A stretch of 64,000 nucleotides of DNA, taken from contig JAUVXM010000006.1 in assembly GCA_030603565.1 (NCBI GenBank), forward strand, positions 607-64,606. Reading direction: 5' to 3'. The notes under the pieces were generated by a model that did not search any database, had not been told where the DNA came from, and saw only the letters and a list, made by a program, of their open reading frames with translations. Made by a program: the position numbers and the translations under genes. Origin of the DNA: Candidatus Aminicenantes bacterium. GTDB taxonomy: Bacteria > Acidobacteriota > Aminicenantia > Aminicenantales > Aminicenantaceae. Positions within the stretch are counted from its first letter, which is position 1. Every line of letters starts with the position of its first letter. This document shows, piece after piece, positions 8,294 to 63,971 of this stretch.

Positions 8294-8340
8294 AAAGGAT
8301 AAAATCGGTTTCTGGAATAATATTGTAGGAGGCAAAAAAT

Positions 8341-35155: not shown

Positions 35156-35194
35156 CTTGAACTATTCATAAAAAATGTCGCTACATATAATATA
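35156..35194 (-). promoter_or_regulatory. Conserved intergenic motif (family C), site a, 22 nt upstream of the AKR start codon
   Basis: The minus strand reads GCGACATTTTTTATGAATAGTTCAAG. This matches the consensus shared by seven sites. Confidence 0.4.
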
Positions 35195-44295: not shown

Positions 44296-44349
44296 GGGGA
44301 CAGGGTACTTTTTTTACTTCGGAAAAAAGTACCCTGTCCCCATTTTTTT
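44296..44349. terminator. Bidirectional rho-independent terminator (rnpB on plus, nuoN on minus)
   Basis: GGGGACAGGGTACTTTTTTtacttcgGAAAAAAGTACCCTGTCCCC, flanked by an A-run at 5' and a T-run at 3'. Confidence 0.8.
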
Positions 44350-45781: not shown

Positions 45782-47364
45782 TTGAGTAAAATATTAGTTT
45801 CTTCTTTTGATTCTTCGGTTTTATCTTTCTTGATTTTGATTATTAGTTCTTTTTCTTCTTTTTGTACGGATGCGGACACAGATGTTCTGCTTTTTATTTG
45901 ATGGAGAAGGTGGGTGACCGAAGCGTCCATCTTTCTTAGAAAAGGCCGAGGAAAGATTCCCATCCAGAACATCATAATGATAATAGGTATGAGAAATCCG
46001 AGCTCTCTTTTATTAAGATCTGGGAATGATTTGATTTTGTCATTGGTGATGGGACCTTGCATAACCCGTTGGTACATCCATAAAAGATATGCAGCCCCCA
46101 GAATAATGGTCAACACTCCCAGGGCAGCCAATGTATGGCTGGATTTGAAAATACCGAAAAGGCAAAGCACTTCACCTACAAAACCATTTAGGCCGGGCAG
46201 TCCTACTGAAGACAGCATACAGACAAGGAAAAATGCGGAAAAAACAGGCATCTGTTTGCTTACTCCCCCATAATCCTTAATAAGGCGTGTATGGGACCGT
46301 TCGTAAAGAATACCTACGCAGAGAAAGAGAGCGCCTGTACTTAAGCCGTGATTGAGCATCTGATAGATAGCCCCTTCCATAGCTTCAAAGTTTAGAGAAA
46401 AGACAGCCAGCATGATGAGACCCATATGGCTGACACTGGAGTAGGCTACCAAAGATTTTATATCTTTTTGTACGAGGGCCATAAGGGCACCGTATATGAT
46501 GCCTATAAGGCATAGGACTGCTAACAAAGGAAGGAACTTTTGGGCAGCATCTGGAAAAAGCGGCAGAGCAAAACGAAGGAAACCATAGGCCCCCATTTTA
46601 AGAAGGACTGCAGCCAGGATCACAGACCCGGCTGTAGGGGCTTGTACGTGAGCGTCGGGAAGCCAGGTGTGAAAGGGAAACAGGGGAACTTTAATAGCAA
46701 ATGCCAGAGCAAAGGCCAGAAAAAGCCAAATCTGAACACCTGGATCTAAGATAAGTTTCTGGAAATCAAATATATTAAGTGAATAAACTCCGCTGGCTTT
46801 ATAATAGGTGGAATAGAGGAAGAATATGGCAACCAGCATTAGCAGGCTGCCGAACATGGTAAATAGGACAAACTTAACTGTAGCGTATATTTTACGTTTG
46901 CCTCCCCAGATGCCGATAAGGAAATACATAGGGATAAGCATAGCCTCCCAGAATACATAAAAAAGAAATAGATTAAGAGACAAAAAGACCCCGATTATTC
47001 CGGTCTCAAGTATGAGCATGAAAATAAGGTACTCTTTTATTTTATCCTGAATAGAAGTCCAAGAGGATATAATGGCTATGGGAAAGAGGAAAACTGTAAG
47101 GATCACAAGCAGGAGGCTGATACCGTCGATTCCTACATGATAATTTATGCCGTAACCTATCCACTCAGCGGTTTCCACAAATTGAGGGTCTGCTGTGCTG
47201 CCGTCGAAATTAAAATACAGGGGGAGGGCAACTAGGAAGGTTAAGACAGTTACGGTAACAGCCAGATATTTCAGCAGATTTATTTTCTCTCTGGGGATAA
47301 AAATAAAAAGAATAGCTCCTGTAAGCGGTAAAAAGATCAAGATGCTGAGTATCGGTATGTTCAT
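45778..47364 (-). CDS. nuoM: NADH-quinone oxidoreductase subunit M
   Basis: 528 aa antiporter-like subunit with a 4-nt overlap. Confidence 0.85.
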   Translation of the reverse strand: MNIPILSILIFLPLTGAILFIFIPREKINLLKYLAVTVTVLTFLVALPLYFNFDGSTADPQFVETAEWIGYGINYHVGIDGISLLLVILTVFLFPIAIISSWTSIQDKIKEYLIFMLILETGIIGVFLSLNLFLFYVFWEAMLIPMYFLIGIWGGKRKIYATVKFVLFTMFGSLLMLVAIFFLYSTYYKASGVYSLNIFDFQKLILDPGVQIWLFLAFALAFAIKVPLFPFHTWLPDAHVQAPTAGSVILAAVLLKMGAYGFLRFALPLFPDAAQKFLPLLAVLCLIGIIYGALMALVQKDIKSLVAYSSVSHMGLIMLAVFSLNFEAMEGAIYQMLNHGLSTGALFLCVGILYERSHTRLIKDYGGVSKQMPVFSAFFLVCMLSSVGLPGLNGFVGEVLCLFGIFKSSHTLAALGVLTIILGAAYLLWMYQRVMQGPITNDKIKSFPDLNKRELGFLIPIIIMMFWMGIFPRPFLRKMDASVTHLLHQIKSRTSVSASVQKEEKELIIKIKKDKTEESKEETNILLK

Positions 47365-47365
47365 T

Positions 47366-49273
47366 TTAAAAAATTAAGTATCCTATTAAGATTATTGCTC
47401 CCAGAAGGAAGACAAGAGCATAGTCCTTGATCAGACCGGTATGGAGGCGGCTTAATATCAGGCCGAAAAAGCCGGTTGCGGAAGCACTGCCGTTTACAGC
47501 TCCGTCAATAATTTTCAAATCAAAATTTTTATATACAAATTTAGAACCTTTTATAGTCGGATTTACAAAAGTCGCGTTATAGATCTCATCTACATAATAT
47601 TTGTTATAAAGGAGTTTATAGAGAAAGGGGAACCTAGACACAAGTTTCTTCGGGATCTCAGGTTTTTTAAGATAAAAAACATATGCCAGATAAATTCCAG
47701 TTAAGGCTACTAAAACAGAAACAAGGATAAGCAGCCATTCTGTGCCGATACTTAAGTGTGCTTCATGTCCGGGTCCGCCGTGTATGATGGGTGCCAGGAA
47801 ACTGTTAAACCAGTTAATGTTTTTACCCAGCACTACAGGCATCCCGATATATCCGGCGACAACAGAAAAGAAAGCCAGGATCACAAGAGGTATAGTCATG
47901 GATTTGGGAGATTCATGCAGATGTGCCTTGGTTTCAGGTTCAAGCCGCTCTTTGCCGTAGAAGGTGAGAAATATCAGGCGGAACATGTAGAAAGCGGTTA
48001 GGATAGCTCCCAGAATGCCAAGCAGCCAGATTCCGTATTGTCCCCGGGCATAAGCACTGGTTAGAATTGCATCCTTTGAGAAAAATCCTGATAAAAAAGG
48101 TACTCCTGCTATAGCTATTGCGCCTATAAGAAATACCGGATAGGTGATAGGTAAGTATTTTCTCAACCCTCCCATCTTCCTCATATCAAGTTCACCGGAA
48201 AGAGCATGTATAACACTGCCGGCCGCAAGAAATAGCAGGCTTTTGAAAAATGCGTGGGTGTACAGGTGGAATATACCGGCTGCATATGCACCTACCCCGC
48301 AGCCTATAAACATATATCCTATTTGCGAGATAGTCGAATAAGCTAGAACGCGTTTTATGTCATTCTGAACCAGCGCCATTGTAGCTGCATATATGGCAGT
48401 TACTGCTCCGATGATAGCCACTACATTAGCTCCGGTCCCGGACAGGGTATAAAGAGCATTCATACGGGCGACCATATACACTCCGGCTGTTACCATAGTA
48501 GCCGCATGGATAAGAGCGCTGACCGGGGTTGGGCCTTCCATAGCATCTGGTAGCCAAACATAAAGGGGGATCTGAGCTGATTTTCCAGTTGCTCCCGCAA
48601 ACAGAAGGAGCGCTATCAGGGTAGCAATTCCCTGAGTTATGCTTCCCCCTGCTATGGCTTCATTAATAGCAGAAAATTCTCCGCTGCCTACATGGATAAA
48701 TATAAAGAAAATGCCCAGGAGAAATCCGGCATCTCCGATGCGGTTTACAATAAATGCTTTTTTGCCGGCATTAGCTGCTGAGTGTTTTTCATACCAGAAA
48801 CCGATAAGTATGTAGGAACAGAAACCTACTCCTTCCCAACCTACAAACATCAATACCAGATTAGAAGCCATGACCAGGATCAGCATAGAGAAAGTAAAAA
48901 GGTTCATAAGCGTGAAAAAACGGGCATAGCTTTTATCCTCAGCCATATATCCGATTGAGTAGATATGAATAAGAAGTCCCACTCCTGTTACTACGAAACA
49001 CATTACAGCTGTTAAAGGGTCGAATTGGAAAGAAAGGTCGGCTTTAAAACTGCCGGACTGGATCCAGGAAAAAAGATTTTTAACCAGGGGGGAGCTGCCC
49101 TGGGGCATTTGCATAAGGCCCACAAATGAGATAATGGTTATAGCAAAAGAAATAAATACAGCAAAACAAGCTTGAAAAGAAATATATTTACGAGGCAGTT
49201 TGGAGCCAAAAATAACAAGAATAAAGCTGCTTATCGCGGGAATAAACGGTATAAGCCAGAATATTTCTGTCAT
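47366..49273 (-). CDS. nuoL: NADH-quinone oxidoreductase subunit L
   Basis: 635 aa antiporter-like subunit with a long C-terminal region. Confidence 0.85.
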   Translation of the reverse strand: MTEIFWLIPFIPAISSFILVIFGSKLPRKYISFQACFAVFISFAITIISFVGLMQMPQGSSPLVKNLFSWIQSGSFKADLSFQFDPLTAVMCFVVTGVGLLIHIYSIGYMAEDKSYARFFTLMNLFTFSMLILVMASNLVLMFVGWEGVGFCSYILIGFWYEKHSAANAGKKAFIVNRIGDAGFLLGIFFIFIHVGSGEFSAINEAIAGGSITQGIATLIALLLFAGATGKSAQIPLYVWLPDAMEGPTPVSALIHAATMVTAGVYMVARMNALYTLSGTGANVVAIIGAVTAIYAATMALVQNDIKRVLAYSTISQIGYMFIGCGVGAYAAGIFHLYTHAFFKSLLFLAAGSVIHALSGELDMRKMGGLRKYLPITYPVFLIGAIAIAGVPFLSGFFSKDAILTSAYARGQYGIWLLGILGAILTAFYMFRLIFLTFYGKERLEPETKAHLHESPKSMTIPLVILAFFSVVAGYIGMPVVLGKNINWFNSFLAPIIHGGPGHEAHLSIGTEWLLILVSVLVALTGIYLAYVFYLKKPEIPKKLVSRFPFLYKLLYNKYYVDEIYNATFVNPTIKGSKFVYKNFDLKIIDGAVNGSASATGFFGLILSRLHTGLIKDYALVFLLGAIILIGYLIF

Positions 49274-49274
49274 T

Positions 49275-49577
49275 TTATCCCTTCATACTCTTTATGTCTT
49301 CAGTTTTGATAGATTTTTTTTGGCGGTAGATCAATAATATAATGGCAAGGCCTATTGCAACCTCTGCGGCTGCAACAGTTATGACAAAAAAGACGATTAT
49401 CTGTCCGTCCAATGCAGAAGCTGATTTGGAAAAAGTGATAAAAGCGAGATTAGCAGCATTAAGCATTATTTCCACAGACAGAAATTGAGTTATGAGATCT
49501 TTTTTTACAAAGAAGGCGATAATTCCCAGCACAAAGAGTATTAAACTAAGGATTATAAAATAGCTCAAAGGAATCAT
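49275..49577 (-). CDS. nuoK: NADH-quinone oxidoreductase subunit K
   Basis: 100 aa, 3 TM. Confidence 0.85.
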   Translation of the reverse strand: MIPLSYFIILSLILFVLGIIAFFVKKDLITQFLSVEIMLNAANLAFITFSKSASALDGQIIVFFVITVAAAEVAIGLAIILLIYRQKKSIKTEDIKSMKG

Positions 49578-50071
49578 TCTTTTTCCTTCTTTTTTACTAA
49601 AATAATCGCTCCAACAAGAGCAGTTATGATCAAGATCGAGGTGATCTCAAACGGGTATAAGTATTTTGTAAATAAAAGATATCCTAAGTCAGAGGGATTG
49701 CCGATTGCTTGGCTTGAGGAAGTGTTTAAGGGATTGAAAGCCATTTTTAAAGCTACGATTAGCTCGATAAATAGAATAACTGCAATCCCGGAAGCAAAAC
49801 CCGATGTCCATTTTTTCTTCTCAGGAGTGATACCTTTACGGACATCGACCATCATAATAACAAATATAAAAAGTACCATGATCGCACCTGCATAAATGAT
49901 GATCTGGATCACTGCGATAAAAGGAGCGTCAAGAAGGGCAAAAAAACCACCTGTGCAAGTAAAAGCGAGGATTACAAAGAGAGCACTGTATGCTTGGTTT
50001 TTAGAAATTATCATACCCAAGACTGAAGCTATACAGACAACAGAGAGTAAAAAAAATAGAAAATAAGCCAT
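49574..50071 (-). CDS. nuoJ: NADH-quinone oxidoreductase subunit J
   Basis: 165 aa, 5 TM. A TTGACA-N18-TATAAT promoter on the minus strand lies about 40 nt upstream. Confidence 0.8.
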   Translation of the reverse strand: MAYFLFFLLSVVCIASVLGMIISKNQAYSALFVILAFTCTGGFFALLDAPFIAVIQIIIYAGAIMVLFIFVIMMVDVRKGITPEKKKWTSGFASGIAVILFIELIVALKMAFNPLNTSSSQAIGNPSDLGYLLFTKYLYPFEITSILIITALVGAIILVKKKEKE

Positions 50072-50165
50072 TTTTTTAGAGTTTTTTATTATATTTTTTG
50101 AAAGAATGTTATGTCAAGCAAATATTATAATAAAATTTATTTTTTCCTAGAATATGCGAGAGCCG

Positions 50166-50188
50166 GCATTTTTTATAAATAGTTCAGG
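50166..50188 (+). promoter_or_regulatory. Conserved intergenic motif (family C), site c, abutting the -35 of the tRNA-fMet promoter
   Basis: CATTTTTTATAAATAGTTCAGG, immediately 5' of TTGACA (50197-50202). Confidence 0.4.
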
Positions 50189-50196
50189 CAATATCA

Positions 50197-50224
50197 TTGA
50201 CAAAGGAAAAATGTTTGCTATAAT
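50197..50224 (+). promoter_or_regulatory. Sigma70-type promoter of tRNA-fMet
   Basis: TTGACA, 16-nt spacer, TATAAT. The tRNA 5' end is 14 nt downstream of the -10. Confidence 0.6.
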
Positions 50225-50237
50225 TAACTCTTACATT

Positions 50238-50313
<76 letters not shown>

Positions 50314-50613
50314 ATTTTCCCTATCTGTTACCCCGAAATAGTAATTTAGACACTTTTCCTGAAATTTGACTTTATAGAAATTTATAGCATAAAACAGCGT
50401 CAGACACGTCGCAAATCTTGACATTTTTTTAAAACCAATTGACCTATATTTTCTATCTCTTAAGTATTTTCATTGACAGTATATATTTTTTTTATGTATT
50501 ATTGTTGATACATTAGCTTAATGGGTGGAAGTTTGATGAAATTAAGTGAAGATTTTTATAAACAAAAAAACCAAATCCCTACCCATCAATTTTTTTAACT
50601 ATATATAAAATTT

Positions 50614-53600
50614 ATGAAGTGTCCTTACTGTGGCTCAAATAACACAGCTAATACTCCATTTTGTAGTCAATGTGGGAATTCCCTGAAGGATTTGGGAGGG
50701 GGATTGAATACACGTACACTAACTATGGATTTAATCAGATTTCATCTAAAAAGAGGTAGTGTATTTGCAGATAGGTATGATGTAATCGATTTACTTGGCC
50801 AAGGGGGTATGGGCAAAGTATATCGGGTATTTGATCGGAAGATTAAAGAAGAAATTGCTTTGAAGCTTATAAAGAATGAAATAGCTAGCGATAAAAAAGC
50901 AATAGAACGATTTAGCCTTGAATTGAAAATTGCCCGAAAAATATCTAATAAAAATGTTTGCAGGATGTACGATATTAACGATCATGCAGGGATTCATTAC
51001 ATAACTATGGAATATATACCAGGAGAAGACCTAAATAGCCTTATTAAAAGAGTGAAAAAAATTACCGTTGAGAAAGCAATACACATAGCAATTCAAGTTT
51101 GTAATGGACTTGCGGAAGCGCACAAATTAGGAATTGTACATCGAGACTTGAAACCGCAAAACATAATGATAGATAAAAAAGGAAATGCCTATATTATGGA
51201 TTTTGGTATTGCACGTTCTCTTGAAACACAGGGAATTACAGAAGTTGGAAAAATTGTTGGAACTCCTAAATATATGTCTCCGGAACAAATTGATTGTCTG
51301 GAATTGGACGGAAGGTCTGATATATATTCGCTTGGAATAGTCTTGTATGAGATGGTAACTGGAAATGCTCCTTTTGACTCAGATAATTTTGTTAACGTTG
51401 TGCTTAAACATAAATCAAAGGCACCGAAGAATCCTAAAAAAATTGATTCTACTATCCCAAATAGACTTTGTGACGTTATTTTAAAATGCCTTGAAAAGGA
51501 CAGAGGAAAAAGATATCAAAAAATTGAGGACTTAATATCTAATCTAAATGGCATCAAAAAAGCACTTTTTTTTAAGAAAAAAGATCCCATCAACAAAGTG
51601 TCAATGGTGGACAAGTTTGTTGGATTGATCCATAAGAAAAAAGTTAAAATCGCAGTAGCTATGCTGCTGATATTGGCAGCTGGTGCAGTTGTAGTGTGGA
51701 TTCAAAAAAAAATATCAAAAATTGATTATGCTAAAAATGCTGATTTTTCTGAAACAATAAAGCAGCCAAGTATAAATAAAAATATAGAGCCAAGAGTTTT
51801 TGACGGATTTAAAATTAAGGAGGTTTCAGATGGAAGTGAAACTGTTAAAATCGATGGAGGTGTTGAGGACAAGCTATATATCGGCAAAACAGGAAGTATT
51901 TACTATGAAAAGCAAGAAAATGATGGGGAGAGTATTACGATTTATATCGCAGAATTTTTCATTACTGATGTAAGAAAAGAAGAATCATTAATCGAAATTT
52001 TTAAACAAAAGGAGAAAATTGTAAAAGGTTACCTGATAAAGTTTGATCAAAAAAATAAAGCGGTTCTATCAATTGCTTGTAAACAAAAAGAGGCGGAAAT
52101 TTTTATTAACAACGAAAAAAGAGGGAAAACTGATTTTAAGATGTTGTTAAATCCGGGGACATATAAAGTAGCAGTAAAAAAGAATAAATTTATGGAATAT
52201 TCTAGAACTGTCAATTTATTGCCAGGTGATAGAGTTCCCCTTGATTTAAGCTTGACTCCAATTATGCAAAAGCTCGGTCAATTAGTCATTACTAGTAATC
52301 CTCCTGGGGCAGATGTTTTTTTTAGGAATAAGGATAGTTCTATCGGAATAACTCCTTTTAGAGATAATCTGGAACCTGGAAAGTATATTATTGAAGTAGC
52401 CCTAAGAAATTATTATAAAGAAAGTGAGACATTTAAAATAAAGGCAGGCGAGAGAATTTCCCGGAATTTTGATCTTAATCCAAAGGATGCAACTATAAAA
52501 ATAGAATCTATTCCTAAAAAAGCAGAAGTGTTTATTAATAACGAAATGACTCCATCCGGAAAAACGCCTTTTCAGATGAATTTGCCTCCTAATAATTATA
52601 GAATAAGGCTACATCTGGAGGGATTTAAAGATCAAATAGACGAAATCATTCTTAATCCAGGCAAAATGGTTTTGAAAAATTACACTATGAGGAAAATAAT
52701 GCCGAAGAAATCTATATTGGTTGTGAATACTATTCCAGATGGCGCTTCTGTGTATATTAATAATGTGAAACAGAAATATAAAACTCCGATGGAGATTAGT
52801 TTAGAAGCTTCTAAAGTAGAATTGAGAATAGAAAAGGAAAATTATAAAGCATATGAAGAGAGTGTAAGTCTTAAATATCATGTTAATACAGAAAATCTTA
52901 CTCTTGAGAAACTAAGAAAAGCTCAGCTTATAATTAGCTCATATCGAGAAGCTTTGATTGAACTGGATGGGAAATTATTAGAAAAATCTGTCCCTCCGGA
53001 AAAAAAAGAAGAGGTTTATGAGGGTATACACAAAGTAAAGTTTATTTTTGATGAGAATCTTTTCATTGAAAAGACTATAAATATTGAAAATGGGGAAATT
53101 AATAGAATCCATTGTGACGATGAAGAATATAGAGAATTGAAAAAAGAAAGATGTAGGTATGAGATTAAAGCATGGCCGTTGGCAAAAGTAAAAATTGACG
53201 GAGAGTCCCTGAATGAACCGGTACCGCCCTTGAAAACAATATGGATTAATGAAGGGACCCACAAAATAAAATATCTATTTGAAAATCAATTGGCTGTTAC
53301 AATTAATGATACCATCAATAAAAGCGAGAAAAAAAATATACATCTAGGATATGAGATCCAAAATATCCAAATTTCTGAAGACTTAAATCAATTGAAAAAA
53401 ACAATAAAATGGCAAGACGAGTCTATCTCTATTGAATCGAATAACAATTTGGATATTAAGGTCGCTGGAGGAGTAAGATATACTGTCCCTTCTAATGACT
53501 TATTAATAATTCCTTATAAGAGAAAAAATGGACATCATTTTGAATTGTTTATCAATCCAAACAAAAGTTATGAAACCGTCATAAATTTAATAAGAATCGG

Positions 53601-53655
53601 GGAGAAAAAAATCGGTAAAATAGAGTTGAGAATATTATTAGATAAATCAAATTAA
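50614..53655 (+). CDS. Ser/Thr protein kinase with N-terminal zinc ribbon, one TM, and C-terminal extracytoplasmic PEGA repeats
   Basis: 1013 aa. CPYCGS...CSQCGN ribbon. Hanks kinase motifs (VHRDLKPQN, DFGIAR, GTPKYMSPE). TM KIAVAMLLILAAGAVVVWI. At least four PEGA-like units (PPGADVFF...ITPF, IPKKAEVFINN...KTPF, IPDGASVYINN...KTPM). Confidence 0.85.
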   Translation: MKCPYCGSNNTANTPFCSQCGNSLKDLGGGLNTRTLTMDLIRFHLKRGSVFADRYDVIDLLGQGGMGKVYRVFDRKIKEEIALKLIKNEIASDKKAIERFSLELKIARKISNKNVCRMYDINDHAGIHYITMEYIPGEDLNSLIKRVKKITVEKAIHIAIQVCNGLAEAHKLGIVHRDLKPQNIMIDKKGNAYIMDFGIARSLETQGITEVGKIVGTPKYMSPEQIDCLELDGRSDIYSLGIVLYEMVTGNAPFDSDNFVNVVLKHKSKAPKNPKKIDSTIPNRLCDVILKCLEKDRGKRYQKIEDLISNLNGIKKALFFKKKDPINKVSMVDKFVGLIHKKKVKIAVAMLLILAAGAVVVWIQKKISKIDYAKNADFSETIKQPSINKNIEPRVFDGFKIKEVSDGSETVKIDGGVEDKLYIGKTGSIYYEKQENDGESITIYIAEFFITDVRKEESLIEIFKQKEKIVKGYLIKFDQKNKAVLSIACKQKEAEIFINNEKRGKTDFKMLLNPGTYKVAVKKNKFMEYSRTVNLLPGDRVPLDLSLTPIMQKLGQLVITSNPPGADVFFRNKDSSIGITPFRDNLEPGKYIIEVALRNYYKESETFKIKAGERISRNFDLNPKDATIKIESIPKKAEVFINNEMTPSGKTPFQMNLPPNNYRIRLHLEGFKDQIDEIILNPGKMVLKNYTMRKIMPKKSILVVNTIPDGASVYINNVKQKYKTPMEISLEASKVELRIEKENYKAYEESVSLKYHVNTENLTLEKLRKAQLIISSYREALIELDGKLLEKSVPPEKKEEVYEGIHKVKFIFDENLFIEKTINIENGEINRIHCDDEEYRELKKERCRYEIKAWPLAKVKIDGESLNEPVPPLKTIWINEGTHKIKYLFENQLAVTINDTINKSEKKNIHLGYEIQNIQISEDLNQLKKTIKWQDESISIESNNNLDIKVAGGVRYTVPSNDLLIIPYKRKNGHHFELFINPNKSYETVINLIRIGEKKIGKIELRILLDKSN

Positions 53656-53672
53656 GAAAACAGGAGGAAAGC

Positions 53673-54260
53673 ATGAAAAAAAAAATATTGTTTCTAATTA
53701 TGTTATTATTTATGTTGCATATTACACAGGCTCAGACTGAAACAAAAAAATCTGAAAATTTAACTCTTTACTATGGTTCTGGTGCTAATAATACCAAAGT
53801 AGCAGGGGCTTCAATGGGAGGAAATATTTGGCATTATTTACAGTTTCAGTTGGATGTATTTAAATACTTAAATCAGGACATGAATTTTTATTCAGTGAAT
53901 CCTTCCGAAGATAGGAGTGATTTTCTAGGCCTTTCTGGCAACGTTGCTTTGAAAATTCCGATTCATCTTATCCCTTCTCTTGATAGATTAGAGTTTGTTC
54001 AGCCTTATATCCTAATAGGATATGGATACGGCATTGAAAGCATTAAAGGAGAATTTATAAAAGAGCCTGATTCTGAGGGAAATACTGGCATTTTCTCTAA
54101 AATAAGACAATTTGATTCTATAGGTACAGGAATTATAATCTGGGTGCTTCCTACTGTGGGAATAAAAGTAGATTACCGTTCAATTAAATTATCAGAACAT
54201 GAAAAAATGGGTTTTCCGAAAAGAAAATTTAACCGTATTTCTTTGGGAATATGTTTTTAA
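53673..54260 (+). CDS. Small outer-membrane beta-barrel protein (OmpA/OmpW-like)
   Basis: 195 aa. Signal peptide, alternating amphipathic strands and a C-terminal aromatic residue (ISLGICF). Confidence 0.45.
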   Translation: MKKKILFLIMLLFMLHITQAQTETKKSENLTLYYGSGANNTKVAGASMGGNIWHYLQFQLDVFKYLNQDMNFYSVNPSEDRSDFLGLSGNVALKIPIHLIPSLDRLEFVQPYILIGYGYGIESIKGEFIKEPDSEGNTGIFSKIRQFDSIGTGIIIWVLPTVGIKVDYRSIKLSEHEKMGFPKRKFNRISLGICF

Positions 54261-54286
54261 ATATATAATTGTAAAAGGGAGGAAAA

Positions 54287-54922
54287 ATGTTTAGGAGTCG
54301 AATTAATTTATTACTAATTTGTTTTGTTTTGGCAGTTGTTTTTACAGCTCCGAGCTTTGGACAAGAAGAGAATTTATTTCAAGAAGGGAAAAAGCTATAT
54401 CAGTCAGGCGAGTATGATGAAGCTATTAAAGCCTTTTCTGAAGTTGTTAAAAAATCAGTAAATAAAGATTTATGCTTTAAAGCTTATTTATATTTGGGTT
54501 ACACCTATTTTACTCGTGGTAATCATAATAAAGCCAGGAAAAGCATTGAAAATAGTGTGCAGATGAAACAAAACGTAGAGCTTGATGAGAGCGAGTTTGT
54601 GCCTGAGTTTATAGATTTTTATGAAGAAAACAAATTGGGAGTAGTAGGAATAGGATTTTTTGAGTCCATACCTTCATCTGCTAGTGTTTATCTAGACAAA
54701 AAGAAGATAGGATTTACTCCTGTTAAAAAAGAATTGTTGTCTCAGAAATATTATTTACGCATTGTAAAAAGGGGATATGAACCTATTGTGAAGGAAATTG
54801 AAATCAATATAGGAGAAATTAATTATTTTAAAGTTGATTTTAGCAAAGGAAAAAATTGGAAGACTTTCTTGAGGTCATCTGTTTTAATGATTGTTTTAGG
54901 TTTGGTGCTAAAGAGTTTATAA
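54287..54922 (+). CDS. Secreted TPR plus PEGA-domain protein with C-terminal membrane anchor
   Basis: 211 aa. Signal peptide, TPR helices (LYQSGEYDEAIKAF), a PEGA unit (PSSASVYLDKKKIGFTP) and a hydrophobic C-terminus. Confidence 0.6.
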   Translation: MFRSRINLLLICFVLAVVFTAPSFGQEENLFQEGKKLYQSGEYDEAIKAFSEVVKKSVNKDLCFKAYLYLGYTYFTRGNHNKARKSIENSVQMKQNVELDESEFVPEFIDFYEENKLGVVGIGFFESIPSSASVYLDKKKIGFTPVKKELLSQKYYLRIVKRGYEPIVKEIEINIGEINYFKVDFSKGKNWKTFLRSSVLMIVLGLVLKSL

Positions 54923-54939
54923 ATCCAAAAAATTGTAGG

Positions 54940-55200
54940 AATTCCTAGGCTCTGGGTCTGTGAGACAGAATCGGACAAGTACTGGCGTGCTGTACTAAAT
55001 GAGCTCAAGAACCAAGGGTTAAAAGATGTTCTTATCTTCTCTGTGGATAATCCCAAAGGTATCTCTAAGGCCCCGAGGAAGTCTTTCCCCAAGCGTGAAT
55101 ACAAAATACATTGTTCACCAATCCTTTCTTCATCAAGTACCTATGTTAATTCCATTTGCCCCACAGATGGTCTTTGACGTATGAATTAAAAAATATAAGT
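54940..55200 (+). mobile_element. IS256-family transposase gene fragment (internal remnant, frameshifted)
   Basis: Translates to LWVCETESDKYWRAVLNELKNQGLKDVLIFSVDNPKGISKA..FPK. A +1 frame then gives YIVHQS, matching the IS256 transposase blocks ESAKFWL.VLN.LKNRGV.D.LI..VDGL and CIVHQIRNS. No start, no ends and no terminal inverted repeats are present. Confidence 0.6.
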
Positions 55201-55276
55201 GTCGATAATAAAAAGGATGATGCAATAATAAAAATTACTAAAGAGAATGCAACGAAAAGAAGATATATAAGATAAT

Positions 55277-56734
55277 CTACTTTTTCTTCCCTTTAATAGT
55301 TATTGTAGCAGGCAAATTAAAAGTTGTGCCGTCGCTGAGATTTCCAGTGACATAAATTGTAGGGCTATCTCCGTTTTTCGGATTAGAGATAATTGAGATT
55401 GCTTTGCTTTGCGAAAATTTAGCTATATAGGTGAATCCTCCGATCTCGTAATCATCAGGTTGAACTGATCCACCTGGTCCCACCATACACAGAGAGCTAT
55501 AGATGATATCTTCAAATCCTTCCCCTTTTATTCGTGCTATCACTTCACCATCACCATTTTCTGCCCAGGCTGTATTCCATTTAGTTGGCTTTATTTCTAA
55601 GGTTAACAGACCTTGGCCGAATTTCTTTCCCGAAATCGTAATCGTATCCCACACCTCAAAAGGAGTTCCCCTACTAAGATTTCCGGTTACGAGAATTGTA
55701 CAATTGTCGCCCCGTTTTGGATCAAGAATCAGGCCAATCGCATCACTTTGGTTGAATTTTGTAACGAAAGACACACCACCGAATTCATAGCTGTCTGGAA
55801 TCGGACTGATTGAAGGTAATCCATCATCTGGATATGCCATCTGAACAGTCGTAGGATCTATATCTTGAAAGCCTTCTCCGCTGATTCGGGCTGTCACTAC
55901 ATTTTCGCTATCATTGTCGCCTTCATCATTTACCCAGGCAATGTTCCACTTTTTAGGCCGTATCACCAAAGACAAATCCCCTCCTAGATATTTCTTACCA
56001 ACAACAATTATATTTGCAATTGGGGGATCAAATTCTGTTCCATCATTAAACTGGCCCATGACTTGAATATCGTAAGATTCTCCTCGCTGCGGCTCAGGGA
56101 TTATTCCGATAGCTTCGATTTTCAGGAATTTGGCAACAAAAGAATACGGTCCAACTTGTGCCTTAGATGGAGCACCTGTTTCTGCCCCCTCAGGACCGAC
56201 CATTCTTAAAGTCTCTGGGTTTATCTCTTCAAATCCTTCTCCGCTGATACGCACCGTGACCAAGCCCATGCTATTTGCCCAATTTATGTTCCACTTAAAT
56301 GGCTTTATCCGCACTCGGAGTTCCTGGGTTATCTCATTATTTTTTTTACTCCCTCTGGAAGGCCCCTTATTAATCCCAGCTTTTTGGTTCAATTTAGGAT
56401 TATGACTTGCCGTGACGCTATTAACAGTAGCATTGGAAACTTCATTTCCAGTGCTCGCTTCGGCGGCTTGATCAACGGATGCCACATGACTGGTTCGAGA
56501 TTTTCCTTTAAAATCAGGTTTTTGCCTCTGATAGCTACCTTTTTCCTCGCTTTTCGCAGATATAGAACCATTACTATAAGAACTTGTTGAAGCGACACTT
56601 CCTGTATTCACAACCTCACTTGATTGTTCCTCAACATCAGCGGCGGGAGTGAAGGGATTTCCGTCTTTATTACAGCTAATAGACAAGAACGAAAGCATAA
56701 AAATACAGGTTAGCACAATAACTTTAGTTTTCAT
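55277..56734 (-). CDS. Lipoprotein with an S/N-rich linker and three tandem ~110-aa repeats
   Basis: 485 aa. Lipobox LSISC. Repeats start IKPFKWNINWAN / IRPKKWNIAWVN / IKPTKWNTAWAE and each contains SGEGF(E/Q)DI...G(F/Y)...AKF..S.AIG.I..PK.GD...I.V.GN...GT.F. Confidence 0.6.
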   Translation of the reverse strand: MKTKVIVLTCIFMLSFLSISCNKDGNPFTPAADVEEQSSEVVNTGSVASTSSYSNGSISAKSEEKGSYQRQKPDFKGKSRTSHVASVDQAAEASTGNEVSNATVNSVTASHNPKLNQKAGINKGPSRGSKKNNEITQELRVRIKPFKWNINWANSMGLVTVRISGEGFEEINPETLRMVGPEGAETGAPSKAQVGPYSFVAKFLKIEAIGIIPEPQRGESYDIQVMGQFNDGTEFDPPIANIIVVGKKYLGGDLSLVIRPKKWNIAWVNDEGDNDSENVVTARISGEGFQDIDPTTVQMAYPDDGLPSISPIPDSYEFGGVSFVTKFNQSDAIGLILDPKRGDNCTILVTGNLSRGTPFEVWDTITISGKKFGQGLLTLEIKPTKWNTAWAENGDGEVIARIKGEGFEDIIYSSLCMVGPGGSVQPDDYEIGGFTYIAKFSQSKAISIISNPKNGDSPTIYVTGNLSDGTTFNLPATITIKGKKK

Positions 56735-56942
56735 TTTATTTCTCCTTAGCCCTGAATGTTAATAATCATTATAACATGATTTTATAAAATGCAACCTTTT
56801 CCCTCTTTATCCCATATGATCAATATGATCAAAAATTGAACACATGTCAATCACCTTTATAGGTGACTTTTTGCTAATTCCATAACCCCCCTCTGCTACC
56901 ACAACTCCTTTATCTCGTCGTATTTACTAATTTTCCATCTAA

Positions 56943-56979
56943 CCTGAACTATTCATAAAAAATCTCGATGTTTATGATA
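56943..56979 (-). promoter_or_regulatory. Conserved intergenic motif (family C), site d, about 200 nt upstream of the repeat-lipoprotein gene
   Basis: The minus strand reads ATCATAAACATCGAGATTTTTTATGAATAGTTCAGG. Confidence 0.35.
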
Positions 56980-57089
56980 AACCTATTCATATCAATATGT
57001 CGGATTAATTTATTGTGAATTCATATTCTTTCAATTTTTTAAATAATTATACGACAAAATTTAAGCTTAAGCTAGAACTACATATAAGG

Positions 57090-57515
57090 ATGATTAAAGT
57101 AGATAAAAAGTCCAAAAAAGCGGTAAATCCTGCCAGGATATTGATCGTTGAAGATGAAAATATTATTGCTATGGATATTCAGAGTATATTGCAAAAAATG
57201 GGTTATGATGTCTTTGCTATAGTTTCTTCAGGGGAAGAATCAATTAATATCGCCTCCTTAACTATGCCTGATATTGTTCTTATGGATATCAAATTAAAAG
57301 GAAAGATGAATGGTATTCAGGCTGCTGAGCATATATATGATCAATTCAGGATACCTATAATTTTTGTTTCTGCTTATGGAGATGAGCTTACATACGTACA
57401 ATCAGGCAGGTTTAAGCCATTTGAATTTGTCCGAAAACCTTTTATAGAAGAGGAACTAGAAGACAAAATTTCAGGAGTTCTGCATAAAAGCCGGAAGTAT
57501 AGTACTGTTAACTAA
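57090..57515 (+). CDS. Stand-alone response-regulator receiver (CheY-like) protein
   Basis: Start chosen at ATG 57090, directly after the RBS AAGGA; the ORF track extends to 57015. REC motifs VEDE, MDIKL, K at FVSAYGD. Confidence 0.7.
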   Translation: MIKVDKKSKKAVNPARILIVEDENIIAMDIQSILQKMGYDVFAIVSSGEESINIASLTMPDIVLMDIKLKGKMNGIQAAEHIYDQFRIPIIFVSAYGDELTYVQSGRFKPFEFVRKPFIEEELEDKISGVLHKSRKYSTVN

Positions 57516-57576
57516 AAACATCTTCCCCTTGATTTTTTCATGTAAGTTTGAACATAATACTTGGTGTAATAGAAAA

Positions 57577-58611
57577 ATGAATATGCGTGTTGCAATGTAT
57601 TATAGTAACCATGATATACGGGTGGAAGAGATGCCAGTTCCTATAATAGGGCCGGATGAACTCTTAATGCGTACCGAAGCCAGCGGTATATGCGGCAGTG
57701 ACGTGCTGGAATGGTATCGTATAAAAAAAGCTCCACTTGTGTTGGGACATGAAGTTGCCGGCCAGGTGGTAAAAATTGGGGAAAAAGTTACCAGGTTCAA
57801 AGTAGGGGACAGGATAGTCGCAAATCATCATGTGCCCTGTAACACCTGTTCATTTTGCCTTACAGGACATCATACGGCCTGTAATACTTTACGGAGTACT
57901 AATTTTGAACCGGGCGGATTCTCAGAATACATTCGAATCCCTGCAATAAATGTAGATAGAGGGACATTCCTTATCCCAAATGAACTTACTTATGAGCAAG
58001 CGACCTTCCATGAGCCTCTGGGATGTGTTATCCGGGCTAATAGGATGGCTGGACTGAAGCCAGGGCAAAGCGTGCTTGTCCTGGGGAGCGGAATTGCCGG
58101 ACTCTTAAACATTCATTTTGCCAGACAAGCCGGGGCAGGCTTGATCCTGGCTGTCGAACCTGTCTCATACCGCCAAAAAGCGGCCTTAAAGTTTGGCGCA
58201 AATGAAGCGATATCACCTGGAGAGGATATTCCAGAACTCTTAAGAAAAATAAACAGGGGAAGACTGGCAGACATGGTTTTTATAAGTACCGGAGCAGAGG
58301 AACCTCAATCTCAGGCGCTCAAGTGGGTAGAAAGAGGAGGAACTGTTGTATATTTCGCGCCTACTGCATCAGATGTTAAAGTTCCGGTTTCAGTAAACGA
58401 GCTGTTTTTTAGAAATGACATAAACCTTACTACTAGTTATGGCTGTGCCCCCTATGATTCTTATCTTGCTCTTGAACTTATGCATTGGTCTAAACTTAAA
58501 ATAAAAGAAATGATTACACACAGATTGCCTTTGGTTGAAACATCCAAGGGATTCCAAATGGTAGCGGCAGCAGAAGATTCATTAAAGGTGATTATTGAGC
58601 CACAGAAGTAA
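57577..58611 (+). CDS. Zinc-dependent medium-chain alcohol/polyol dehydrogenase (threonine/sorbitol dehydrogenase-like)
   Basis: MDR-family GroES-like domain with catalytic zinc ligands (GICGSD, GHE) and structural-zinc Cys cluster CNTCSFCLTGHHTAC. Rossmann motif GSGIAG. Confidence 0.8.
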   Translation: MNMRVAMYYSNHDIRVEEMPVPIIGPDELLMRTEASGICGSDVLEWYRIKKAPLVLGHEVAGQVVKIGEKVTRFKVGDRIVANHHVPCNTCSFCLTGHHTACNTLRSTNFEPGGFSEYIRIPAINVDRGTFLIPNELTYEQATFHEPLGCVIRANRMAGLKPGQSVLVLGSGIAGLLNIHFARQAGAGLILAVEPVSYRQKAALKFGANEAISPGEDIPELLRKINRGRLADMVFISTGAEEPQSQALKWVERGGTVVYFAPTASDVKVPVSVNELFFRNDINLTTSYGCAPYDSYLALELMHWSKLKIKEMITHRLPLVETSKGFQMVAAAEDSLKVIIEPQK

Positions 58612-58645
58612 TAAGTAGTATAGTAAAATGTTGATTTGAAAAGAT

Positions 58646-58683
58646 GTATCATACATATCAACATTTTTTTTGAATAGTTCAGG
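58646..58683 (+). promoter_or_regulatory. Conserved intergenic motif (family C), site e, 22 nt upstream of the aldolase start
   Basis: GTATCATACATATCAACATTTTTTTTGAATAGTTCAGG. Confidence 0.4.
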
Positions 58684-58704
58684 CTAATTGTTAAGGAGGT
58701 TAAA

Positions 58705-59493
58705 ATGGACTGGGGAATCAAAAATCGTTTAGCTCGAATAATAAAACCACAGACAGGACGTACTGTGATGCTGGCGGTCGATCATGGGTATTTTTTAGGC
58801 CCGACAAAAAAATTAGAAAGCGTAAGCAGGACAATTGAGCCGTTAATGGATTATGCTGATGCTCTCATGTTAACGCGGGGAATACTGCGTACTTCAGTGG
58901 AACCTGAAACTTCGATGCCGGTAGTGCTGAGAGTGTCGGGAGGAAGCAGTATTATCGGGGAAGACCTGTCAAATGAAGTAATAACTACTTCCATAGAGGA
59001 TGCTATCAGACTGAATGTGTCTGCCATTGCGCTTTCAATATTTGTCGGTTCCGAATATGAAAGCCAGACTCTGGAAAGCCTGGCTATGCTGGTAAATATG
59101 GGACAGGAGTTTGGTATCCCGGTGCTGGCTGTGACTGCTGTGGGTAAAGAATTATCCAAGCGGGATTCCCGTTTTCTCTCCCTTTCCTGCCGGATTGCTG
59201 CTGAATTTGGAGCAAGTTTTGTAAAAACCTATTACTGTGAAGATTTTGAAAAAGTAGTAGAAAGCTGCCCAGTACCGATTGTTATAGCTGGCGGGCCAAA
59301 ACTTGAAACTGAACTTGATGCATTTGAAATGGCATATGATGCAGTAAATAAAGGTGCGGTTGGAGTAGATATGGGACGGAATATCTGGCAGAATAATAAT
59401 CCTGTGGCTATGCTGAAAGCTGTGAGAGCAGTTGTACATAAAAACGCTTCTCCTGCTGAAGCTCTGGAGATATTTAATAGGAATAAAAAATAA
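58705..59493 (+). CDS. Class I aldolase of the DhnA/FbaB/LsrF/ADH-synthase family
   Basis: 262 aa TIM-barrel aldolase. N-terminal RTVMLAVDHG block. The Schiff-base lysine is predicted in FVKTYY. Confidence 0.7.
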   Translation: MDWGIKNRLARIIKPQTGRTVMLAVDHGYFLGPTKKLESVSRTIEPLMDYADALMLTRGILRTSVEPETSMPVVLRVSGGSSIIGEDLSNEVITTSIEDAIRLNVSAIALSIFVGSEYESQTLESLAMLVNMGQEFGIPVLAVTAVGKELSKRDSRFLSLSCRIAAEFGASFVKTYYCEDFEKVVESCPVPIVIAGGPKLETELDAFEMAYDAVNKGAVGVDMGRNIWQNNNPVAMLKAVRAVVHKNASPAEALEIFNRNKK

Positions 59494-59506
59494 CAAGAGT
59501 ACGTTG

Positions 59507-60337
59507 ATGAAAATCGCACTTATACAACAGCATGCCACAAAAGACAGTACAGAAAATGTAGAGCGGGGAATTAAGGCTTTTCAGGCCGCAGCTGAAGCAG
59601 GAGCTGAACTTATAGCCTATGCAGAATTAGGTTTATTATATTTTCTTCCTCAGAATCCGGCTACTTCTGAATCTGCAGCCAAAGCAGAGAAGGTCCCTGG
59701 TCCGGTAATTGAAAAATTCCAAAAACTTGCCGCCCATTATGGAGTAGTCACTGTTTTAAATGTATTTGAAAAAGCCGGAGATAAGACTTTTGACTCATCT
59801 CCTGTGATAGATGGCGATGGCAAGCTTCTGGGAGTTACACGCATGGCCCATGTTATGGATGGCCTGGGTTTTTATGAAAAAGGATATTACACACCTGGAG
59901 ATAATAAAAGATTCGTTTATGACACAAAAATAGGCAAATTAGGAATAGCGATCTGTTATGACCGTCATTTTCCCGAATATATGCGAAACCTGGCGCTCCA
60001 GGGGGCTGAGATTGTAATCGTCCCCCAAGCCGGTGCTTTAGGAGAATGGACAGAAGGATTATTCGAAGCAGAGCTTCAAGTAGCAGCTTTTCAGAACGGC
60101 TATTTTGCAGCTCTGGTTAATCGGGTAGGTAAAGAAGATACTCTCCATTTTGCCGGCGGGTCATTTATAGTCGATCCTGACGGCCGCCTTCTTGCTCAAG
60201 CACCGCAGGAAGAAGATTTTATTCTCTATGCGGAAGTTGATTTAAAGAAAGTATCGGATTGTGCTGCAAAGAAATATTTTCTAAATGACCGAAGGCCGGA
60301 TTATTACAAAAAGTTTTCTCTGCTTGATCAGGAATAA
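59507..60337 (+). CDS. Carbon-nitrogen hydrolase (nitrilase superfamily)
   Basis: Predicted catalytic residues: E in AYAELG, K, and C in IAICYD. The start was re-set to MKIALIQQ at 59507; the ORF track's 59432 start overlaps the aldolase. Confidence 0.75.
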   Translation: MKIALIQQHATKDSTENVERGIKAFQAAAEAGAELIAYAELGLLYFLPQNPATSESAAKAEKVPGPVIEKFQKLAAHYGVVTVLNVFEKAGDKTFDSSPVIDGDGKLLGVTRMAHVMDGLGFYEKGYYTPGDNKRFVYDTKIGKLGIAICYDRHFPEYMRNLALQGAEIVIVPQAGALGEWTEGLFEAELQVAAFQNGYFAALVNRVGKEDTLHFAGGSFIVDPDGRLLAQAPQEEDFILYAEVDLKKVSDCAAKKYFLNDRRPDYYKKFSLLDQE

Positions 60338-60339
60338 TA

Positions 60340-60819
60340 ATGAGAAAGTGGTATGTTATCAACACCAGACCAAAAAAAGAAGCCCAGGTGGAAAAACTGT
60401 TTCAGGAAGGTGGTTTTGAGATATATAATCCAAAATATATACATGAAAAAAAGGTGAAGCCTTTCTTTAATGGATATGAATTTATTAATTTTGAATATCC
60501 GGAACAGTATCGAACAGTAAAGTATACACGAGGCGTAAAAAAGATTGTCGGTAATGGAGACCAGGCTGTTCCGATTCCGGATGAAATTATAAAAGAGATA
60601 AAAGATAGAGAGGTCAATGGTTATATTGAGCTGGAGAAATATGGAGTGGAGCCGAATACCGGAGATGAGATAGAGGTCATGGAAGGCCCGTTTAAAGGGT
60701 TTAAGGGGATATTTAAAAAGGAGTTATCCCAGAAGGAAAGAGTTCTTGTTCTGTTAAATTATATAACTTACCAGGGACGGATTATTATTGAAAAGAAAAA
60801 AATAAAAAAGGTCTTATAA
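60340..60819 (+). CDS. NusG-like specialised transcription antiterminator paralog (NGN plus KOW)
   Basis: 159 aa. NGN start KWYVINTRPKKE. KOW motif GDEIEVMEGPFKGFKGIFK. Not in a secE-nusG-rplK context. Confidence 0.65.
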   Translation: MRKWYVINTRPKKEAQVEKLFQEGGFEIYNPKYIHEKKVKPFFNGYEFINFEYPEQYRTVKYTRGVKKIVGNGDQAVPIPDEIIKEIKDREVNGYIELEKYGVEPNTGDEIEVMEGPFKGFKGIFKKELSQKERVLVLLNYITYQGRIIIEKKKIKKVL

Positions 60820-60839
60820 TTTTTTATGAATAATTTAGG

Positions 60840-63563: not shown

Positions 63564-63624
63564 ATTTACTATTTAAAATTTTCTAAGTATCATACATATA
63601 GACATTTTTTATAAATAGTTCAGG
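63564..63624 (+). promoter_or_regulatory. Conserved intergenic motif (family C), extended version, site f
   Basis: ATTTACTATTTAAAATTTTCTAAGTATCATACATATAGACATTTTTTATAAATAGTTCAGG. Confidence 0.4.
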
Positions 63625-63927: not shown

Positions 63928-63956
63928 TCATACATATAGACATTTTTTATGAATAA
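63928..63956 (+). promoter_or_regulatory. Conserved intergenic motif (family C), site g, running into the RBS of the last gene
   Basis: TTCATACATATAGACATTTTTTATGAATAATAAAGGAG. Preceded by CACACCTGAATTTCAT, which is also present at 63542. Confidence 0.4.
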
Positions 63957-63971
63957 TAAAGGAGATAGCAT

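Follow-up and report, generated by a model that had tools for sequence, protein, structure and literature searches.

About 6.6 kb of inserted DNA (positions 50314-56894) follows the initiator tRNA gene, tRNA-fMet, in the genome of an uncultured Candidatus Aminicenantes bacterium, and in this Aminicenantes lineage tRNA-fMet serves as a hot spot of integration. All coordinates refer to a 64,000-nucleotide (nt) stretch of that genome, hereafter the window, whose features are collected in Table 1. We interpret the segment as an immobilised composite remnant of DNA inserted site-specifically in the 3' half of tRNA-fMet, and put the probability of this interpretation at roughly 85%. The insertion is seen against an empty site, the anatomy of its attachment (att) sites is preserved in sister alleles, its mobility genes have been lost and its make-up is a mosaic. 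An earlier, sequence-only reading had proposed a decayed genomic island beside tRNA-fMet, and this is supported by a genuine trough in GC content, by a loss of synteny with close relatives precisely at the tRNA 3' end, by an unoccupied site in a metagenome contig and by a complete att pair with an integrase in homologous alleles (L005 and L094). Carried within the insertion is a three-gene cassette encoding a receptor-type Ser/Thr kinase, an outer-membrane beta-barrel and a TPR-PEGA protein.

An empty site and the attachment core

Comparison relied on the nearest public genomes, L001 (JAUWNW010000042, ~94% nt identity) and L005 (CBFDDY010000055, ~92%), on two metagenome loci from one shared sample (L094 and L096; JGI 3300040952), and on more distant Aminicenantes with 65-70% nt identity to the window (L003, L004, L006 and L007). 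In blastn alignments, L001 is collinear with window positions 44348-50334 and its homology starts again at 57026; L005 breaks at the identical two points. The interval between these break points is variable, measuring 6.7 kb in the window, 2.6 kb in L001 and 7.1 kb in L005, and its contents differ in each (L001 holds a PALP enzyme gene and gene fragments).

An empty junction was sought in metagenome contigs by combining the tRNA end with the sequence that follows attR in L005, and one contig was returned: L054 (Ga0114922_10000257), whose known sequence reaches 1.1 kb beyond the tRNA. This contig carries nuoL-K-J and a complete tRNA-Met, and continues directly after the CCA into CAACTCCTTTATCTCGTCG..., in which a convergently oriented DUF885 gene has its 3' end. 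It is 93.9% identical to window 46229-50313 over 4086 bp, the match ending at the last tRNA base (50313), and its next 27 bp (4078-4104) equal window 56895-56921 at 27 of 27 positions and, equally, L005 9134-9160, the attR of that genome. When six junctions are set side by side, the native flank CAACTCCTTTATCTCGTCGT is common to L054, to the attR of L005 and to the attR remnant of the window, while the left end following the tRNA, ATTTTCyCTATCTGTTACCCC, is common to the window, L001 and L005; this 21-bp left end is missing from the empty site.

At one end of the island the tRNA-Met(CAT) is intact, with initiator hallmarks that can be read from its sequence (anticodon-stem GGG/CCC and a U1xU72 mismatch), and is followed after its last base by element-type sequence where the empty site has chromosomal sequence. 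The attachment core comprises the last 45-51 nt of the tRNA (50263/50269-50313), spanning the anticodon loop to the CCA, and is duplicated in the occupied alleles of relatives. The stop codon of DUF885 overlaps the CCA end of tRNA-fMet (L054 4079-4084; also L005 9135-9140), so that integration leaves DUF885 adjoining the displaced tRNA fragment. The gene has been cut independently in each occupied allele, to 81 aa in L005, 165 aa in L094, 54 bp of its 3' end in L096 and ~25 bp in the window.

An identical 25-nt tRNA-fMet 3' end was also observed on 24 viral contigs of IMG/VR (L070-L093), often at the contig end, and in at least 10 of the 24 a tyrosine integrase lies within 1 kb of it; phages or islands thus seem to make wide use of the initiator tRNA end for attachment. 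An IMG/VR scan for the attL junction itself gave 0 matches, and relatives of the L005 integrase in that database are at most 40% identical and uninformative on the L005 element. Upstream of the receiver gene in L004, L006 and L007 there is no tRNA within 10 kb, and these genomes are therefore uninformative on the ancestral state at the tRNA.

Sister alleles and states of the locus

The allele of L005 retains the anatomy of an integrated element: the tRNA serves as attL, the element measures 6.8 kb, and attR is a 51-bp repeat of the tRNA 3' half at 9090-9140, of which 45 bp are exact (the exact 45-nt tRNA segment is found twice, at 2298-2342 and 9096-9140). Directly before attR lies a tyrosine integrase (Phage_integrase E=3e-35, with Arm-DNA-bind_2 and SAM-like N-domain), and further genes of the element include an excisionase-like gene (HTH_17) and two Fis-type helix-turn-helix (HTH) genes. 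The integrase is split into two open reading frames (ORFs; 7966-8301 and 8315-9067) by a stop that separates the N-terminal arm/SAM-like portion from the catalytic domain, a break that could reflect a pseudogene or an assembly error.

The locus of L094 carries the exact receiver protein of the window, with 98-99.6% identity to window 57026-59700. Upstream of its receiver gene are a 165-aa C-terminal DUF885 fragment and a 48-bp attR that matches the tRNA 3' end of the window at every position, and beyond attR lies the C-terminus of an L005-type integrase (...LGHSTIKMTERYANPTPDSMKEAVE...). In L096, collinearity with the window extends from 59700 down to 55258, at identities of 95.0% for the lipoprotein block, 91-92% for the receiver and Zn-dependent alcohol dehydrogenase (ADH) genes and 94.7% for the aldolase region. 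L096 has the same junction of lipoprotein block and attR as the window, with 54 bp of DUF885 retained, and to the left of its lipoprotein gene stand an intact 247-aa methyltransferase gene and a 718-aa gene combining Ser/Thr kinase (STK) and TPR domains. The variable segment of L001 includes 38 bp (8851-8888, 87% identical) copied from the middle of the tRNA-Met gene, a part of the tRNA other than the 45-bp att core; this suggests a separate history of rearrangement in that strain.

The locus can accordingly be described in at least five states: empty (L054); occupied by an integrase-bearing element (L005 and L094); a remnant with a partial tRNA copy (L001, 8851-8888); a composite without the cassette (L096); and a composite with the cassette (the window). 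The window is itself a mosaic of lineages, being 98-99.6% L094-like to the right of 57026 and 95% L096-like in the lipoprotein block (55258-56891), which points to recombination at the locus between co-existing strains.

Table 1. Features in and around the insertion at tRNA-fMet, in window coordinates
Feature	Position	Strand	Evidence or remarks
Initiator tRNA-Met(CAT), acting as attL	50237-50313	+	ARAGORN; Rfam tRNA 60.7 bits
Left-end remnant of an L005/L001-type integrative element, 21 bp, ATTTTCCCTATCTGTTACCCC	50314-50334	+	20/21 positions match L001, L005
AT-rich window-specific spacer	50335-50471	+	Composition and box clustering; TTGAC boxes at 50366, 50418, 50439
Promoter and ~70-nt 5' leader upstream of the kinase gene, ~105 bp	50472-50576	+	TTGACA-18-TATTAT at 50473-50502
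Receptor-type Ser/Thr kinase, 1013 aa	50614-53655	+	Pkinase E=4e-57; PEGA E=1e-43; Zn_Ribbon_1
Predicted 8-stranded outer-membrane beta-barrel protein, 195 aa, signal peptide	53673-54260	+	AlphaFold, Foldseek
TPR-PEGA protein, 211 aa, N-terminal signal peptide, C-terminal hydrophobic helix	54287-54922	+	PEGA E=8e-12; TPR_2/TPR_1
IS256-family (Mutator) transposase fragment, internal, frameshifted	~54932-55181	+	~80 of ~400 codons
SAM-methyltransferase gene remnant, internal, 34 bp	55227-55260		97% identical to L096 4865-4898
Lipoprotein gene block with its own promoter region, host-like GC	55258-56891 (gene 55277-56734)	-	485 aa
attR remnant: last 7 tRNA nt (GCTACCA) and last 8-9 DUF885 codons	56895-56925	+	27/27 match
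Window-specific filler	56926-57025		Replaces the rest of DUF885 and part of the receiver upstream region
Short interspersed intergenic repeat copy	56939-56998		Inside the filler, next to the attR remnant
21-nt core copies	56943-56963, 50168-50188, 58663-58683, 35156-35176, 60819-60839, 63604-63624, 63942-63962		
Stand-alone receiver (REC) gene, core	57090-57515	+	Outside the island

The right boundary

The sequence-only reading had placed the end of the island at 57520. The boundary instead falls at about 56894 and is followed by the attR remnant, in which the tRNA contributes 7 nt (56895-56901), alone too short to count as a direct repeat. Support for the remnant comes from the adjoining 20 bp of native flank, which complete the 27/27 match to the junctions of L054 and L005. 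Of the imperfect tRNA repeat once suggested at 56886-56901, the GCTACCA (56895-56901) does come from the tRNA, but the C-run before it is the upstream end of the lipoprotein block, conserved in L048, L049, L053 and L096. Searches by tblastn with the L005 integrase, excisionase and other element genes found no remnants in the window, and no Pfam integrase is encoded in the ORFs of the island; with neither gene present and attR cut to 7 nt plus native flank, the DNA is unable to excise.

Beyond the remnant, the filler at 56926-57025 has no counterpart at that place in L001, L005, L094 or L096. The interspersed repeat inside it has a 21-nt core, CCTGAACTATTCATAAAAAAT. The window contains 7 copies of this core, all of them intergenic, where 0.02 would be expected, and some copies grow to ~40-60 nt (...GTCGATATGTATGATA). 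Two copies lie ~20 nt upstream of a start codon and one directly precedes the -35 box of the tRNA promoter; the motif could be a promoter or UP-like element peculiar to the lineage, or else a small interspersed repeat.

To the left of tRNA-fMet, on the minus strand, stand nuoJ, nuoK, nuoL and genes for further antiporter-like (nuoM/N-type) subunits; to the right of the island, from 57090, follow the receiver gene, the Zn-ADH gene, a DeoC-type aldolase gene and a nitrilase-family gene. Homology with L001, L005, L094 and L096 restarts at 57026, before the receiver gene, and the latter is found next to Zn-ADH in every relative examined, including alleles without this island and the more distant L003, L004, L006 and L007. 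Since this adjacency is kept, the receiver gene belongs to the core chromosome and is not cargo, as the sequence-only reading had taken it to be; the domain calls of that reading for the kinase, barrel, TPR-PEGA protein, three-repeat lipoprotein and receiver all stand. PhyR-type regulators supply the closest NCBIfam model for the receiver gene, through their receiver domain, at a score under the cut-off.

Two layers of inserted DNA

The GC content of 50335-55250 is 0.318, against 0.418 in the rest of the window, and that of 55251-57025 is 0.397. The three cassette genes have a GC of 0.307-0.320 and a third-position GC (GC3) of 0.24-0.26, at z scores of about -3.0 to -3.4 (about -3 for GC3) relative to the 37 other genes of the window (GC 0.418 ± 0.037, GC3 0.397 ± 0.046). 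Atypical composition holds for 50335-55250 only and not for the lipoprotein block (GC 0.42), the gene of which is host-like (GC 0.42, GC3 0.35). The low GC that had been judged by eye for the genes at 50614-54922 and for the receiver gene is thus real in both, but the receiver gene lies outside the island; its composition (GC 0.333, GC3 0.27) is as AT-rich as that of the foreign cassette. Composition calls for caution in this genome: the receiver gene shows that a gene of low GC can belong to the core, and the lipoprotein gene that island DNA can have a host-like GC.

The inserted DNA does not form one unit but two layers: one is the low-GC cassette and the other an older block, host-like in GC, which L096 also has. 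The proximal layer, specific to the window and low in GC, contains the 21-bp left end, the promoter and leader and the cassette, and ends at the IS256 fragment. The distal layer, formed by the methyltransferase remnant and the lipoprotein gene, is the older, its junction to the attR remnant being common to L096.

At the tRNA-proximal end, the spacer (50335-50471) has no match in any comparison locus and may be a degenerate element arm. The cluster of TTGACA-like boxes that had been pointed out at 50314-50614 was confirmed, with four plus-strand TTGAC boxes in 50314-50613, a number reached or exceeded in only 0.7% of 300-bp windows, and L001 and L005 have a weakly similar 'CAAAT..TGACA..TGAC' pattern at ~100 bp from the end of their tRNA. 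Complete sigma-70-like promoters are not enriched over 50000-57600 (30, against 32.7 in shuffles, in a promoter/terminator scan). The promoter upstream of the kinase gene (50473-50502), which would drive the three-gene cassette, scores 11/12 as a sigma-70-like promoter and, together with its leader, resembles two stretches of the interior of the L005 element (80% identity to 4264-4368 and 76% to 5989-6087), both intergenic, one ahead of a Fis-HTH gene and the other ahead of an unknown gene. The promoter and leader are absent upstream of the homologous cassettes in L045-L047; one IMG/VR scan, which used exact matching of the -35 to -10 core pattern, gave 0 matches, and Rfam applied to 49500-58000 returned the tRNA alone, the leader matching no RNA family. 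A small conserved ORF in the leader was considered and rejected, its start codon not being conserved in one of the L005 copies. The leader may be a regulatory module of the L005 element family, and we infer, mainly from its being shared with L005, that the shell of an L005-type element encloses the cassette.

The IS256 transposase fragment recognised in the sequence-only reading is real and frameshifted, and matches the central catalytic region of IS256/Mutator transposases (Pfam Transposase_mut PF00872, E=6e-10, profile positions 200-250 of 379; NCBIfam transpos_IS256 NF033543, E=4e-12, positions 160-218 of 338). It is bounded by stops on both sides and is not a full-length DDE transposase (~400 aa). 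Unlike intact members of the IS256 family, it retains ~80 frameshifted codons, with both gene ends and the terminal repeats gone. No inverted or direct repeats (terminal inverted repeats or an 8-9-bp target duplication) were found around 54932-55181, nor was a second IS256 copy found in the window or the comparison loci; to judge from what is left of it, the fragment is a deletion scar and not a functional insertion sequence (IS). Downstream of it, the 34-bp methyltransferase remnant corresponds to L096 4865-4898, which lies in the intact 247-aa gene at the same position, and ~440 bp between it and the lipoprotein block have been lost in the window.

The lipoprotein has a lipobox, a disordered linker of ~115 aa and three consecutive immunoglobulin (Ig)-like beta-sandwich repeats. 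In the AlphaFold model the folded domains reach a predicted local confidence (pLDDT) of ~90, while the global score (pTM 0.38) leaves the mutual placement of the three domains uncertain. The best Foldseek matches are adhesin extender repeats (5irb/4p99, E ~1e-11, followed by 6xi1 and 2yn5), and in its consecutive Ig-like domains the predicted protein resembles the BIg-type extender repeats of MpIBP, SiiE and the RTX adhesins. Unlike the giant RTX adhesins it is a lipoprotein of 485 aa, without a sequence-family match and with low overall TM-scores (a measure of structural similarity), the last because relative domain placement is uncertain. The family has 26 homologues, 0 of them with a Pfam domain, and is apparently confined to Aminicenantes in varied contexts. 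The block and its upstream region occur in unrelated contexts in L048, L049-52 and L053 (70-86% nt identity), and these homologues may be paralogues; as no terminal inverted repeats are seen around the block, there is no sign of its being a transposable unit. Tandem Repeats Finder returned nothing for the region because the repeats of the lipoprotein are too diverged in DNA.

A kinase, barrel and TPR-PEGA cassette

The kinase is ordered as a Zn ribbon, a Hanks kinase domain (Pkinase, residues 55-302), a single transmembrane helix (~residues 345-366) and an ectodomain of ~640 aa with PEGA repeats, in which Pfam recognises four PEGA stretches. Its translation contains all the Hanks catalytic motifs: LGQGGMG (GxGxxG), ALK with the catalytic Lys, HRDLKPQN, DFG and SPE. 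In having a cytoplasmic Hanks kinase with every catalytic motif, a single transmembrane helix and a repeated ectodomain, it resembles the PknB/Stk1 receptor kinases, and PknB_PASTA_kin is its best NCBIfam match, at a score of 329 against a family cut-off of 450. It differs from them in that the ectodomain is built of PEGA and not PASTA repeats, that an N-terminal Zn ribbon is added, and that the gene is always followed by dedicated genes for an outer-membrane barrel and a TPR-PEGA protein. The gene has a GC of 0.320 and a GC3 of 0.26; the best homologues of the protein are 36-56% identical, and it is a singleton at 90% clustering. An identity as an anti-phage defence kinase (PD-T4-6, MADS MAD6 or BREX PglW) was considered and rejected: the PADLOC matches cover the generic kinase domain (residues ~48-319), NCBIfam scores lie far below cut-off (MAD6 183 against 460, PglW 66 against 990), partner genes for methylation or BREX are missing, and PADLOC gives nothing meaningful for the barrel and TPR-PEGA genes.

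The barrel protein has no Pfam, NCBIfam or PADLOC match. Its AlphaFold model (pLDDT 86.8) contains eight long strands, and Foldseek against the Protein Data Bank (PDB) returned NspA (1p4t, E=1.6e-5, TM 0.51/0.63), followed by OmpA, PagL, the OprF N-domain, OmpW, Ail and OmpX. It shares with NspA, the OmpA N-domain, OmpX/Ail, PagL and OmpW a predicted fold, a signal peptide and a C-terminal aromatic residue (the protein ends ...GICF, with a C-terminal Phe). Unlike these NspA/OmpA-type barrels, it has no detectable sequence relationship to any Pfam or NCBIfam family. Its own family is tiny (5.8 billion proteins yielded 7 clusters, and 1.84 billion yielded 4 representatives), with all members inside the cassette, and copies elsewhere are 51-59% identical to that of the window. 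The TPR-PEGA protein (GC of the gene 0.307) is 49-59% identical to the product of the third cassette gene in L045, L046 and L047.

The order kinase, barrel, TPR-PEGA is the same in five other loci (L045, L046, L047, L065 and L066); the contigs of L068/69 end upstream of the barrel gene, so that the last two cassette genes are visible there. In L046, a 329-aa transposase-like gene (3913-4902) stands between the kinase and barrel genes. In L047, a 280-kb contig, the cassette has a GC of 0.36 against 0.43-0.49 in its flanks and is preceded by a 92-aa Peptidase_S46 fragment (7445-7723), which hints that it too is an insertion. None of the three cassette proteins has a relative at least 90% identical among ~15 billion sequences, and a literature search found no paper on PEGA-domain kinases and nothing relevant on Aminicenantes genomic islands; kinases combining STK and PEGA domains are themselves common in Aminicenantes. 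The cassette appears to be rare, conserved and undescribed.

Tentatively, and with rather more doubt than confidence, we suggest that the trio could be an undescribed, horizontally mobile trans-envelope signalling device in which an inner-membrane kinase with a PEGA ectodomain would be physically coupled through a periplasmic TPR-PEGA adaptor to the outer-membrane barrel. The suggestion draws on a gene order conserved across five loci with host GC of 0.31-0.58, and on the cassette-specific, rare barrel.

Origin of the composite and alternative explanations

On the interpretation favoured here, a tyrosine integrase of the L005/L094 type would recombine the attP of an element with the tRNA between the anticodon loop and the CCA; the copy of this segment brought by the element would restore the tRNA (attL), and the displaced chromosomal copy would come to lie at the far end (attR), by the convergent DUF885 gene. 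Four steps could then have led to the present arrangement. Firstly, an integrase-bearing element would have entered the 3' half of the tRNA; insertion is observed for the locus, and entry of this particular DNA by way of an integrase is presumed. Secondly, its distal part would have decayed to a state of the L096 type, with attR cut to ~12 nt at the C-run junction, which the window and L096 share. Thirdly, the low-GC cassette would have entered on the tRNA-proximal side, carried on an L005-type element by tandem accretion; IS256 would then have inserted, and deletions would have taken the ends of its transposase, most of the methyltransferase gene and any mobility genes, events whose scars are visible and whose order is presumed, with an IS256-linked deletion probably fusing the proximal and distal layers. 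Finally, nearly all of DUF885 was deleted, and ~100 bp with the interspersed repeat stand in its place.

Several points weigh against this interpretation. Integrase, excisionase and a full attR are missing from the window, so that entry by an integrase is argued from sister alleles, and there is no att remnant between the two layers that would demonstrate tandem accretion. The nearest relatives of the cassette are 36-59% identical, which leaves no donor nameable. The L096 contig lacks its left side, so that neither the absence of the cassette nor the reach to the tRNA is visible there; adjacency of DUF885 and the receiver gene in an unoccupied genome is drawn from the truncated copies of L005, L094 and L096; and the receiver gene itself shows that low GC alone is no marker of foreign DNA in this genome.

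The likeliest alternative holds that the cassette did not come by tRNA-targeted integration and was added later to an L096-like island, whether on a composite transposon moved by IS256 or through recombination, homologous or illegitimate; the IS256 fragment would then be a vestige of the vehicle. This fragment lies ~10 bp from the last stop codon of the cassette, the L096 island state lacks the IS scar, the transposase gene inside the L046 cassette indicates that IS traffic occurs, and the window is a recombinational mosaic whose right flank is 99% L094-like and whose lipoprotein block is 95% L096-like. Against this, a single internal IS fragment is present, with no second copy, terminal inverted repeats or target duplication, and the cassette is preceded by an L005-type left end at the tRNA and by an L005-type promoter and leader, the promoter and leader being absent from other cassette loci; carriage on an L005-type element fits these two features better, and we regard later insertion as unlikely.

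Far less probable is the proposal that the GC trough reflects a functional or expression constraint on envelope proteins (rich in Lys, Asn and Ile and written in AT-rich codons), and not foreign origin. The core receiver gene is indeed equally AT-rich, and the cassette proteins are somewhat enriched in F/Y/N/K/I (a fraction of 0.36-0.38 against 0.30). However, GC3 is lowered too and not GC1/GC2 alone, and the GC of the cassette tracks that of its host, at 0.28-0.31 in low-GC contigs, 0.36 in L047 and 0.53-0.58 in high-GC hosts. The high values show that low GC is not forced by protein content, and since the cassette follows its host, a GC of 0.32 within a genome of 0.42 points to a source of lower GC; the presence/absence polymorphism at the att site is, moreover, independent of composition.

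About as improbable is an ancestral chromosomal segment that L054, L001, L005 and L094 have lost by deletion with no insertion at the tRNA: deletions have occurred in the interval in all alleles (DUF885 is variously shortened) and STK-PEGA kinases are frequent in Aminicenantes, but in L005, L094, L096 and the window the displaced tRNA fragment is followed by the tRNA/DUF885 junction of L054, which random deletions would not reproduce, and the cassette has a GC3 3 standard deviations under that of its host and encodes proteins without close relatives.

Implications

Integration followed by decay, as reconstructed here, belongs to an established class. The Islander catalogue (PMC4383910) defines islands by a regenerated tRNA gene and a displaced fragment, and includes tandem arrays at one tDNA. 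Like those islands, the present one begins at an intact tRNA and has an unoccupied site, cargo of atypical composition, a tyrosine integrase next to att (in sister alleles), an IS scar and several alleles at one site. At its far end a probable displaced 3' fragment of the tRNA survives as 7 nt. Unlike them, the copy in the window lacks integrase, excisionase and all but 7 nt of attR, and has been pieced together from at least two layers; its host is an uncultured Aminicenantes bacterium and its target the initiator tRNA.

The mechanism, in which tRNA islands set down by tyrosine integrases decay through IS activity and deletion, is a textbook one, and no concept is changed. The value of the case is local: an initiator-tRNA hot spot in uncultured Aminicenantes, at which empty, integrase-bearing, remnant and composite alleles stand side by side among genomes 90-99% identical. 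A site of this kind can serve strain-resolved metagenomics and help to locate mobile elements in the phylum. The case has also brought to notice the rare three-gene kinase, barrel and TPR-PEGA cassette, which may work as a trans-envelope signalling unit and is open to testing as one that spans the envelope. If that suggestion is right, a diderm cell would relay a surface event, be it a ligand, envelope damage or phage contact, to Ser/Thr phosphorylation in the cytoplasm.

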